NCBI GenBank assembly: GCA_963666285.1
Contig: OY762711.1
DNA: 64,000 nt
Direction: 5' to 3' (one strand)
Source: Sedimentisphaerales bacterium
Lineage (GTDB): Bacteria; Planctomycetota; Phycisphaerae; Sedimentisphaerales; SM23-30
Shown piece after piece: positions 2,431 through 6,779 of the stretch. Both the position numbers and the translations under genes were made by a program. Position 1 is the first letter of the stretch. Every line of letters starts with the position of its first letter. Under the pieces are notes generated by a model, which saw nothing but the letters and a program-made list of their open reading frames with translations, ran no database searches and was not told where the DNA came from.

Positions 2431-2810
2431 AGTTAAGTATAAAATAAAAATGTAAGTAAGATGTCGCTTATATAAGTAAAAGGCAATAGGTAAAGATTAA
2501 GATGTTGCTGACGCGAGTTTTTAAACGGCTAACGCCGAAACGGTTGACCACGAAACGCGAAAAGAAAATACAGGTCCTCAGATACTCGCTGATATTCGCA
2601 AATGATTAGAATACAAATTTCAAAAAGTTTTACCACGAATCCATCTAAGTCGGATAAGTTTGCAAGCTAAAATATAAAAGAGCTGAACCACGAATAAGCT
2701 ATGGTAACCGGAGCCTCCCGGTTAATTCAGGATCGAGTATAATATAATACGACGTCCTATTTTAAACGTGCTCGAAGCACAAACAATAAACCTTATTGGA
2801 GGCCCCAGTT

Positions 2811-3854
2811 ATGATTAAGTATATCGGATTAGATATGGATAGCAAGAAAACAGTTTCAATGGTATATGAAAATGGTACAGAGAAGTACGCGACATTACCT
2901 CCTGACATTGGCAGTTTGCAAGATTTTTTGATAAAGCATAAGTCTAAGAAGAATAAGGTATTTGTGGCGTTTGAGGTTAGCGGTTTGGCCGGTTGGATAT
3001 ATGATCAGATAGTTGACCTGGTGGATGAAGTGAAGGTAGTGAATCCCACCAAAGCTACCTGGATATATCGTACCAATAAGAAAAACGATCGAATAGATGC
3101 GCGTAAGATGGCAATTTTGTACAGTATTGATGAATTGCCAAGTGTTTATATGCCAGATAAGGCGGTAAGGCAATGGCGTCAGATGATATTGCATCGCCAG
3201 AAGACGGTACGTAAAGTTGGTCAGACCAAGAATCAGATAAGAGCGTTGATAAAGAGCAATGGCTATTTAGTGCCAGAGCATAAAGGCACCTGGTGGAGCA
3301 AGAAGAATCGAGTCTGGATGGAGAGCTTAACAAAGTCAAAAGAAGATGTACTGTGGAGTCTTCAGTTGGAAGATTTACTTGAACAGTTAAAATTACTGGA
3401 GAATCAAAGAGATAAGATAACAGCCAGACTGGATGAGAAGATAAAAGATAATCCTGGAGCTGAATTATTGATGAGTATTCCCGGGGTTGGTCCAAGGACA
3501 GCTGAGGCGATGCTTGCTTATACAGATGATATAGACAGGTTTAGTAACTATAAGCAATACAGTGCCTACTTTGGCTTAACGCCAAAGCTGGATGAGAGCG
3601 GTTCGACTCGCAGATTGGGACATATCAGCAAGCATGGTCCGCAGGTAGTGCGATGGGCATTATGTGAGTCAAGCTGGCGTGTTGTGAGGTTTTGCCCGGC
3701 GATAAGGCAGTTTTATGAGCGGGTCATGGCCGGTCAGGACGGCAGGAAAAAGATAGCGATAGTTGCGGTAGCACGTAAGTTAACATCGATAATGAGAGCC
3801 ATGTTGAAGACAGGCGAGATGTTTAACGCAGAAATGATAAATCAGGCTGCATAG
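2811..3854 (+). CDS. IS110-family (DEDD) transposase/recombinase
   Basis: YIGLDMD...AFEVS...KNDRIDA (DEDD RuvC-like), SIPGVGPRTA, GLTPKLDESGS, AIVAVARKL. GGAGG RBS at 2798-2802 precedes ATG 2811. Confidence 0.95.
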   Translation: MIKYIGLDMDSKKTVSMVYENGTEKYATLPPDIGSLQDFLIKHKSKKNKVFVAFEVSGLAGWIYDQIVDLVDEVKVVNPTKATWIYRTNKKNDRIDARKMAILYSIDELPSVYMPDKAVRQWRQMILHRQKTVRKVGQTKNQIRALIKSNGYLVPEHKGTWWSKKNRVWMESLTKSKEDVLWSLQLEDLLEQLKLLENQRDKITARLDEKIKDNPGAELLMSIPGVGPRTAEAMLAYTDDIDRFSNYKQYSAYFGLTPKLDESGSTRRLGHISKHGPQVVRWALCESSWRVVRFCPAIRQFYERVMAGQDGRKKIAIVAVARKLTSIMRAMLKTGEMFNAEMINQAA

Positions 3855-4225
3855 AAGACAATATAATAAAGGCTGAGCGACTATGCCGTAAGATCCCGGT
3901 GAATGTCAATTGAAGTTTAAGTTTACTTAAAACCTCGTCACGAAGAATGGGAGTTACGGTCTGTATAAAGTTTAATGTGCCGCCGAATAAGGTGAGTACG
4001 AATAGGAGGTTAGGTCGTTGAATGCCTGCCAAAAGCAGCTCAGTTAATAAAATATGAGGCCTCTGCCTCAGCTCAAAAGCTAACAGGGTTAGCCCCTGTA
4101 ACTTCTTACGCCATCGGCATCAGCCCATGTTTGGGTGAGAGCTGACGCCGAGGCGACGAAGCTACAGGGGCAAAAACCCAGGAAATTTGATAAAAATGTA
4201 AAAAAGAAGAAAAACAACTTGAAAT
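3855..4225 (+). ncRNA. Candidate bridge/seek RNA region in the right non-coding end of the IS
   Basis: About 370 nt with no credible ORF. Long hairpin at 4092-4171 (GCCCCTGTAACTTC...GAAGCTACAGGGGC) and TGAGGC/GCCTCA hairpin at 4055-4070. IS1111-group elements are known to encode their guide RNA downstream of the transposase. Confidence 0.6.
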
Positions 4226-4479
4226 GCTCCGGTTCATAGGATGGACACGAATTCACACCAATAATATATAAGTGACTCGCTACCGCTCGTGTTTAATTAA
4301 TAATAGTCTAATCTATTTATTAATTTATAAGCAAGTAGAATTCCCTATATTTTCTTATACATAAAATACTCCATATCAAAAAGACATTGTTCGGTTTCGG
4401 CTTTACACTCATATTTCAGTTTGATGAAAAAATAAGTTAACATGCCGACAATTGACCGGTTGAGATGCCAAAGAACTGA

Positions 4480-4800
4480 ACCACGGATCCGCCTGAGGCG
4501 GACAGGTTCACACCGATGCACACTGATAAAGAAAAAAATGGAAAGCGATTGGCAGATGAGCAGTAGAATAGAAAAAGGAAAGTTGCAGGCCAGGGAAATT
4601 TTGTAATAATTTATCTCTCGCAGAGGTCGCAAAGATCGCAAAGTTGAATACTACAAATAGAGAAAGTTTCTGCCGCCCTAAAGGGCTTTGGTTGTTTAAT
4701 TAACTTGTTTCCAGCGTTTGACGTTCCGGGATATATCATACCATCCCTGCGGGTTGCTGCCGAGCTCCGCCTGAGGCGGATTTCATTCAGCTCGGCGTTT
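4480..4800. repeat. Cluster of REP-like palindromes and 9-10-bp tandem repeats
   Basis: TCCGCCTGAGGCGGA at 4488-4502 and 4766-4780, with a degenerate copy TCCATCTAAGTCGGA at 2640-2654. TCGCAGAGG-TCGCAAAGA-TCGCAAAG at ~4618-4643. Confidence 0.6.
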
Positions 4801-4838
4801 CCAGGAATTATAAATTTTGCTGTTGAATAATAAAAAGT

Positions 4839-6779
4839 TTATTTGTCAGGGTTTTGCATGTAATAGAGATAGCCGTCCTCGGCGCCGACGAGCAGGTCGG
4901 GAATGTTGTCTTTGTTCCAATCGACGATAGTCGGGCTTGAGGTATGACCGGCCAGGATCCGGTCGTCCAGCAGTCCCCTGTCATCGAAAAGCCATTGGCC
5001 CGGTTCTGTCGAAATATTTTTATAGAACCTGACATTTTTATCGTTGGCCAAAAGGTCCAGCTTTCCGTCGAGGTCCCAATCGACGATAGTGAATTTACGG
5101 CGACCGCTGCGGCCGGCGTAACCATTTGTTAACTGGAATGGTTTTTCGGTGTCACCTGTTTTCAGTTTGAAGATACGCTGCGGAGCTTTAAGGGTGAGTT
5201 TGCCATTAAGTTGTACTCGCTGGAAATATGCGAGGTAGCCCTGATAGTCGAGCATAACCAGATCGTTGAGTCCGTCGCAGTTGAGGTCGATAATAAACGG
5301 GGTAGTTCGCCATTGGGTGATAAGCTCGTTATCCTGCGGCTTCCACCAGTTCCATTCGGGCGATTGCGGCTGAGACTGCCAGTTGATAGTTACCGGCTGC
5401 ATCGGTGCGAGTTCGGGAGAATGTTTTGACCCGATATTTTTGAACCAGACGATTTTGCCCCAGATAGAGTTGACAACAATATCGTGCAGGCCGTCGTTAT
5501 CGAAATCGGCAACGGTAAGAGTGGTATAGCCCCATTTTTCCTCGCACGGGCCCTGGATAGAGCCGTTCGGCCCGGCCATGATACGTATCTCCTGGCCGGC
5601 GGCGTAAAGTTTCCGGGGAGCGGCCCAAATTGGGTTGGCACCGCCGCCGAGGTTTTCGACGAAAATGATCCTGCCGGCGGTGTTGCCGCAGATGAGGTCT
5701 TCATCTCCGTCGGAGTCCCAGTCGATACTGTAAGGAGTAACTAAAGCTCCGACCTTTACACATTCAGCCTGCTGACGGAAGAAAGTCGGCAGCTGAAATT
5801 GCGGTATGCCGTCAGCGAATGTGCCTGAGTTTTCGATGAGGGCGACTCTGCCGTCTTCCTGGCCGACGACCAGATCGATATCACCGTCTTTGTCCCAATC
5901 GATAGCGACCGGCACGAACATACAAAGATCCATCTTGATGGGCGTGCCATTATGGGTGAGATAGTGACCGGCCGCATATTTCGGTTCGGTGCGTGTGCCG
6001 ATATTTTCGAAATAGGTAAATTTATCGATAAACTCGCCGCAGATGATATCGAGGTCACCATCGCCGTCGAAGTCAGCGAAGTCAGGGGTCGGCATGCCAT
6101 AGACATCAATCGGTTTGCCGTCGGCAATGATCTTGACGGGGTCCTGCCATGCGGGTTCGGAATCGCTACCGATATTTTTTACCAGATAGACATAGCCGTG
6201 CAGCGGGCCCCTGGTCCATTTGCCGTTTTGGTCGAAGGCATTATCCCAGCCGTACTCTGTCCAGTCGCCTAAACCGATTAATATATCGAGGTCGGAGTCG
6301 CCGTCGTAATCGCAGTATTTCCACTGGTTAGCACGGATATTTGTGCCGGTCTGGTAAATCTTAGAAGTAGGATATATCTTTTTGGTTTTGGAGAAGTTGT
6401 TCTCGATAAAATCTACATATTCGTGGTTAGCTGCGAGTATGCGAGCGCGGTTATTGACATACGAAATCTGAATATTGTTTATGCCGCCGGTGAGCCTTTT
6501 GGCAGGAGCGAAGACAGGATATTTTTTGTCAGAGCCGGTATTTTCGAATAGATAAATGCCATTATAAGGTTTATCAGTACAAGAGACAAGCAGGTCAAAG
6601 TCGCCATCGCTGTCATAATCGACCGGCAGCGGCCAACCCCAGAGGCCGACACCAAGATCGACAGTCAGATCGGGATTGTTATATTTGATACGTTCAAGCT
6701 TAGATGCATACAGGCTGGAAATTAGAGTAGATGATAATAAAACAGCTGTAACAATTAAATATTTCTTATAATGATTCAT
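4839..6779 (-). CDS. Secreted FG-GAP/VCBS-repeat beta-propeller protein
   Basis: Signal peptide and many DxDxDGDxDL repeats (DYDSDGDFDLL, DFDGDGDLDII, DWDKDGDIDLV, DWNKDNIPDLL). Confidence 0.85.
   Translation of the reverse strand: MNHYKKYLIVTAVLLSSTLISSLYASKLERIKYNNPDLTVDLGVGLWGWPLPVDYDSDGDFDLLVSCTDKPYNGIYLFENTGSDKKYPVFAPAKRLTGGINNIQISYVNNRARILAANHEYVDFIENNFSKTKKIYPTSKIYQTGTNIRANQWKYCDYDGDSDLDILIGLGDWTEYGWDNAFDQNGKWTRGPLHGYVYLVKNIGSDSEPAWQDPVKIIADGKPIDVYGMPTPDFADFDGDGDLDIICGEFIDKFTYFENIGTRTEPKYAAGHYLTHNGTPIKMDLCMFVPVAIDWDKDGDIDLVVGQEDGRVALIENSGTFADGIPQFQLPTFFRQQAECVKVGALVTPYSIDWDSDGDEDLICGNTAGRIIFVENLGGGANPIWAAPRKLYAAGQEIRIMAGPNGSIQGPCEEKWGYTTLTVADFDNDGLHDIVVNSIWGKIVWFKNIGSKHSPELAPMQPVTINWQSQPQSPEWNWWKPQDNELITQWRTTPFIIDLNCDGLNDLVMLDYQGYLAYFQRVQLNGKLTLKAPQRIFKLKTGDTEKPFQLTNGYAGRSGRRKFTIVDWDLDGKLDLLANDKNVRFYKNISTEPGQWLFDDRGLLDDRILAGHTSSPTIVDWNKDNIPDLLVGAEDGYLYYMQNPDK

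Follow-up and report, generated by a model that had tools for sequence, protein, structure and literature searches.

The window, the whole 64,000-nt stretch of DNA analysed, carries at positions 2694-4240 an element of the IS1111 group (IS110 family) with an AT core (Table 1). Its two ends were set by the flanking sequences, which differ among the four near-identical copies in the genome, and by empty sites. Sub-terminal inverted repeats (2701-2714 and 4226-4237), which stand 7 bp in from the left end and 3 bp in from the right end, as in IS1111 elements with their repeats of about 11-13 bp, enclose the gene for a recombinase, in which the domains PF01548 (45 bits) and PF02371 (86.5 bits) both score above cut-off, the residues D8, E55, D93, D96 and S263 are invariant across 40 aligned proteins, and the IS1111 motif GL-P----S(t)G is present as GLTPKLDESG. 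Non-coding sequence amounts to 386 nt downstream of the stop codon versus 116 nt upstream of the ATG at 2811. The recombinase has 847 database relatives at E<=1e-40, the named ones being few and mainly from Planctomycetota, to which the host probably also belongs, while its relatives in the PDB are ISCro4 and IS621, with which the C-terminal part alone aligns (E 4e-19 and 5e-17). The suggestion in the earlier note of a possibly new reprogrammable recombinase was therefore overstated; what we describe is a member of the known IS1111 group.

Table 1. Features of the element and its flanks (positions are those of the window).
Feature	Position	Strand	Basis or remark
Left half of target repeat (…ACCACGA), host DNA	2684..2693	+	Differing flanks, empty sites
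Left terminal extension, 7 bp, ATAAGCT (AT core + right donor)	2694..2700	+	Would supply a -10-like hexamer after circularisation
Left sub-terminal inverted repeat ATGGTAACCGGAGC	2701..2714	+	Conserved in homologues
IS110-family DEDD recombinase, 347 aa from ATG 2811	2811..3854	+	ORF readable from TTG 2796
Predicted bridge (long seek) RNA core, ~175 nt, two arms	3871..4045	+	Fold and covariation
Top-strand target guide UGUCAAU	3904..3910	+	Covariation; single-stranded in fold
Bottom-strand target guide CACGAA (five left-target bases + first core base)	3939..3944	+	Covariation
Probable top-strand donor guide AGUUUA	3969..3974	+	Position; complementarity to TAAGCT with one G-U pair
Terminal loop of donor arm (CGAATAAG), variable, non-guide	3985..3990	+	Fold and covariation
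Bottom-strand donor guide AUAGGA (element right end + first core base)	4002..4007	+	Tracks donor
Putative handshake base (target base just past core)	4009..4009	+	Covariation
Accessory dispersed hairpin repeat, holds stem-loop 4092-4171	4060..4175	.	Dispersed occurrence, fold
-35-like TTGAAA	4219..4224	+	17 nt from TAAGCT in joined ends
Right sub-terminal inverted repeat GCTCCGGTTCAT + 3-bp terminal AGG	4226..4240	+	Conserved in homologues
Right half of target repeat (ATGGACACGAATTCACACC…), host DNA	4241..4300	+	BLAST of repeat

Three of the four copies are inserted in ACCACGA-AT-GGACACGAAT, with the core set off by hyphens, and the fourth in ACCACTG-AT-GGATACGGAT, its CACTG-AT-GGATA being a poorer match than CACGA-AT-GGACA. 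The target belongs to an intergenic repeat of ~80 bp, for which none of 18 BLAST hits falls within an ORF of >200 aa, and the empty 14-mer target occurs five times, the expectation being 0.63 for a 12-mer. Farther along the window, in the downstream intergenic region, short palindromic CCGCCTGAGGCGG motifs form an inverted pair (4487-4502 and 4766-4781). In two sequencing runs from a single sample, possibly the source sample, reads covered the element about four times as deeply as its left flank. Run X2 contained a loose end that hinted at a further insertion, the flank of which was not found in the assembly. One copy (G000:C1:5746163-5747743) has ten differences inside the gene, its protein and RNA being identical to those of the other copies, which suggests that it recombined with a related copy or was inserted earlier. 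A scan of the genome contigs with the recombinase as the single query returned one weak locus. From the joined ends, a junction promoter TTGAAA-17 nt-TAAGCT is predicted, and most homologues have a TTG-led hexamer at the same 17-nt spacing across their joined ends; a promoter scan gave no convincing candidate for an internal promoter that would read into the RNA on the plus strand. No circle joint occurs in the contigs of four sequencing runs, and such contigs cannot show absence.

Homologous loci were drawn from 401 and 301 genomes and from the best 80 of 459 metagenome matches, which at >=45% identity yielded 76 loci, with repeat fetches set aside. Eleven of these, eight of them partial, were dropped for missing the anchor motif (L025, L049 and L050 hold the RNA and were not re-added), and the removal of duplicates and of the second variant from the same genome left 55 elements, with n=51 for the left flank, n=47 for the right, and mostly one insertion site each. 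A distant set comprised 10 loci at 35-39% identity, with ends located from the -35-like motif and one locus lacking a right end.

A consensus fold built on 52 of the 55 elements (two truncated elements and one with a long insertion were excluded) gave a core with two arms, both enclosed by an outer helix that pairs 3871-3878 with 4038-4045. Two-sided changes were found in 22 of the 35 consensus pairs, and 95.5% of cells were paired, versus 31-51% once the partners were slid, controls biased in favour of the structure, since this alignment had also served to derive it. The stretch 3855-4225, which the earlier note had described as a structured non-coding end, does fold as a whole (z -5.55); the single arms, folded alone, are no more stable than shuffles, and these single-arm folds leave 3899-3910, 3938-3947, 3967-3975 and 4001-4008 unpaired. 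No Rfam family came near its gathering score over 2500-4900. Within the genome, a model of the RNA core (R1) matched at the four copies only, besides a weak match on contig C4 (E 7e-5), and no stand-alone copy of the core was found in this genome.

The 80-nt hairpin at 4092-4171 had been noted earlier as part of the structured end, and it is real and very stable (-48.5 kcal/mol, z -8.09, none of 200 shuffles as good), but it lies outside the conserved RNA, 3' of the core. That the guide RNA requires this hairpin, or is processed or terminated by way of it, we consider unlikely. Its stability would fit such a role, as would the shorter hairpin with a similar core motif that stands at the same place in 31 of 47 homologous tails, and the close version (74%) beside the related RNA of an IS110-family element on contig C4. 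Against this, the homologous tails vary in sequence and in length (77-311 nt), in one element the space is too small for a hairpin, the long form recurs in just 1 of 46 other tails (at 82%), and no plus-strand terminator-like site was found. Further, among 300 other genomes the hairpin turned up in five, away from this transposase: most occurrences lie between ordinary genes, and one follows an HTH_Tnp_1 transposon. As an observation on its dispersal, a hairpin of 115-130 nt stands alone as an intergenic repeat twice each in two genomes and also at one transposon end (L130-L134, L136 and L137, in G624, G472, G408, G491 and G505). The hairpin is best read as a dispersed repeat that travels in IS ends as a passenger; it may conceivably also contribute to RNA stability.

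The earlier note had picked out four short matches to target, donor or junction, all of which are present where it placed them, and had rated them as individually weak. That rating was sound: among 2000 dinucleotide shuffles of 3855-4225, 88-96% contained a 6-mer match to target, donor or junction, and 16.5% an 8-mer match to the left junction. Given that matches of this length arise at chance level, only a comparison of homologues can separate real guides from fortuitous ones. In a blind covariation scan, 196 alignment columns were each compared with 25 flank positions, 9800 tests in all; z exceeded 4 in 22 of them, and two diagonals emerged. Along the first, columns 3939-3943 covary by identity with left-target positions -5 to -1; along the second, columns 3908-3904 covary by complementarity with right-target positions +4 to +8, and 3909 also reaches z 4.9 for +3. 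Some off-diagonal hits, at 3914 and 3956, probably reflect common ancestry. Tested as segments, 3939-3943 followed the left target with z 11.4 in 51 elements (4.1-7.6 column by column), and 3904-3910 followed the right target with z 13.5 in 47 elements, values that overstate because the elements are related. Nevertheless, neither result was equalled in 10000 permutations at any of three clustering levels, and with clustering at 78% (17 representatives) z was still 7.2 for 3939-3943 and 8.0 for 3904-3910.

The match of CACGAA to the left target is accordingly confirmed as a target guide. Its top-strand partner UGUCAAU, which precedes it in the RNA, pairs with ATGGACA at six of seven positions, the mismatch being the base after the core; in the window, as in L046, L047 and L116, this guide is one base off the register of the clade, and no site in the genome matches it perfectly. 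Two of the proposed matches did not hold as guides. Specifically, ACGAAT (3998-4003) is near-invariant (53-55 of 55 elements) whatever the target (z -2.0), with its ACG lying in a stem, and CGAATAAG (3984-3991) forms a variable hairpin loop with no covariation with targets (z -0.1). Of the four matches, CACGAA and, from its behaviour toward the donor described below, ATAGGA are retained, and two guides that had been missed are added, 3904-3910 for the target and, likely, 3969-3974 for the donor. Some relatives target other repeats (L010, L034, L040, L042, L067; L044, L047, L071, L118; L046; L119), at sites such as GAG-AT-TGCTTCG, CCGGC-AT-CTGTCG and GGTGG/ATGAGTGG, and have guides changed to match.

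For the second arm, the close clade is less informative. AUAGGA is near-invariant there, where the donor is itself invariant, and 3969-3974 covaries weakly with the donor (z 2.6, 1.9 and 1.5 with increasing clustering), as the donors of this clade barely vary. The distant elements supply the missing variation: in nine of nine, the donor segment, core and handshake base equal the right junction at eight of eight positions, about five of which are informative because the search pattern fixed three. The ATAGGA match to the donor junction is in this way upheld as a donor guide, having followed a changed donor in all nine. Taken together, the covarying helices in 52 homologues and the covariation of guides with targets bear out the central claim of the earlier note, that this region encodes a guide RNA of the bridge/seek type. 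Specifically, we hold with a probability of roughly 0.86 that the right non-coding end of this IS1111-group element encodes a two-loop bridge (long seek) RNA of ~175 nt.

A further signal lies just past the bottom-strand donor guide. In 42 of 47 close elements, base 4009 is identical to the target base that immediately follows the core, a score reached in none of 100000 permutations, and every one of the five mismatches occurs at a non-AT core. Matches other than T arose on at least five separate branches, as counted from a quick tree, and the distant set matches at this position in nine of nine elements (154 of 100000 permutations). The second IS1111 family in the same genome has a mismatch here. 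On the target arm, base 3946 is A in 55 of 55 elements and the donor base is A in 51 of 51, which is compatible and uninformative. A second handshake base at 4010 was considered and rejected, since no signal links it to the target. In both short guides a G faces the second core base (53 of 55 and 55 of 55 elements), although that base is T in most cores (41 of 47 for the target, 43 of 51 for the donor). In the distant elements, the second core base is G and matches the guide; the now unmatched G may have been retained after a shift to an AT core.

With the element flipped, the pairing of 4009 corresponds to the position-7 pairing described for the donor-loop handshake guide of IS621 (PMC11208158, PMC13626964). 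In the passages of the literature consulted, among them those from PMC13604230, 10.1101/2025.05.14.653916 and 10.1101/2025.10.25.684509, neither a handshake signal in the IS1111 group nor this clade is reported, though figures and supplements may contain either. Similarly, we met no description, in the portions of the literature consulted, of core pairing with an unmatched G at the second position. We lean, if only somewhat, towards the view that IS1111-group elements rely on both loops of a bridge RNA together with a handshake base, as opposed to a target-only seekRNA, here in a variant with an unmatched G at the core that might lend itself to an AT-core tool. This leaning arises because one donor-arm base has kept pace with the target in five or more separate changes.

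An alternative that we regard as improbable is that the working RNA is the short processed target arm (~3880-3960), with the ends recognised by the protein via the inverted repeats and the second arm being structural or dispensable. This would accord with ISEc11, for which an 82-nt seekRNA is described as sufficing and as working more efficiently than the 154-nt form (PMC11187229), and with the weak covariation of the donor arm among close elements whose donors barely vary. Yet the second arm follows donor changes in nine of nine distant elements, and the tracking of the target by 4009 through those repeated changes would not be expected of a dispensable arm. That the matches are mere chance in an AT-rich end where the protein chooses the target can practically be dismissed: six-base matches are indeed expected in most shuffles, and two of the four matches first proposed fail to track targets, but covariation position by position, along two diagonals of opposite strand sense and unequalled in 10000 permutations at three clustering levels, refutes chance for both target guides.

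The two-loop reading can be set out as a sequence of events, in which transcription of the RNA, protein binding, the circle and the chemistry are carried over from published work on IS621 and ISEc11. The element would excise as a circle, whose joined ends would create the junction promoter and thereby give rise to transcripts of the recombinase and the guide RNA. The first internal loop would then open the target CACGA-AT-GGACA, with 3904-3910 pairing with the top strand and 3939-3944 with the bottom strand, while the second loop would bind the circle junction ATAGG-AT-AAGCT via 3969-3974 and 4002-4007. After the first strand exchange, 4009 could pair with the incoming target base beside the core, which would favour insertion.

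Other IS110-type elements reside in the same genome. A second IS1111-type family, with nine copies (G000:C1:714620-715630 and eight others) and 34% identity, has 7/3-bp ends and a sibling repeat as its target, ACCACGA-AA-…CACGAAAG; one copy is without the normal right end. A third, IS110-like family has three copies (G000:C1:3804332, 5397443 and 6012128) at 23% identity, and its left flanks end in TTCGTGA, which is the same repeat family on the other strand. A single-copy IS110-family element on contig C4 (G000:C4:42516-43954, or L138:217-1655; 337 aa, 26% identical) has its RNA, the weak R1 match, upstream of the gene, with the long hairpin before it. By the ends we infer for it, its core would be AG and lie within AAGGAG, a sequence resembling a ribosome-binding site; the donor segment, ATAGGAGT, is identical to the right junction. 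Contigs C2, C3 and C4, of ~65-66 kb each, have common blocks at 76-95% identity and may represent related plasmids or phages of one family. C4 also carries a run of short genes for exported proteins, which end in what we take to be a PEP-CTERM-like motif.

Although the class of system has been known since 2024, our results add a well-mapped clade of IS1111 guide RNAs, with loops, guides and targets from ~55 natural elements, so that reprogramming could be designed from them directly. If the two-loop reading with its handshake base is true, this scaffold, retargeted many times, could serve as a compact AT-core tool. The seekRNA and bridge RNA papers differ on whether a donor loop is needed by IS1111 elements, a question to which the handshake signal is relevant.

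Among described systems, ISEc11, ISPa11 and ISKpn4, as presented in PMC11187229, share with our element the sub-terminal inverted repeats with 7/3-bp extensions, the downstream non-coding region, a transposase of 330-350 aa with the GL-P----SG motif, the order of a top-strand match before a bottom-strand match, a junction promoter (predicted here) and a long RNA of 145-170 nt. In that account, an upstream non-coding region is a known exception among IS1111 elements, ISMtsp17 (PMC11187229). Our element differs from these three in its target, the intergenic ACCACGA-AT-GGACAC repeat, in the sequence of its scaffold, and in the donor and handshake covariation of the second arm, which the passages of PMC11187229 consulted do not describe. 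With IS621 and ISCro4 (PMC11208160, PMC11208158, PMC13626964), it has in common internal loops for both target and donor, a dinucleotide core, a handshake base beside the core, a repeat as target and the tolerance of one natural guide-target mismatch, IS621 likewise being reported to bear a mismatch to its own target (PMC11208160). It departs from them in having the RNA downstream of the gene, an orientation of the element that is reversed with respect to the guide order, an AT core in place of CT, long inverted repeats, and short guides that both carry a G unmatched to the second core base. Earlier predictions assign a bridge RNA to 93% of the IS1111 elements catalogued and donor guides to three of them (PMC11208160). 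Of these systems, ISCARN28, ISAzs32 and ISPa11 (PMC11208160 Fig. 6d) resemble ours in a right-end RNA with predicted target and donor guides, whereas many IS1111 elements are described as having multi-loop donor regions (PMC11208160), which, likened by description, contrast with the simple internal loop found here.
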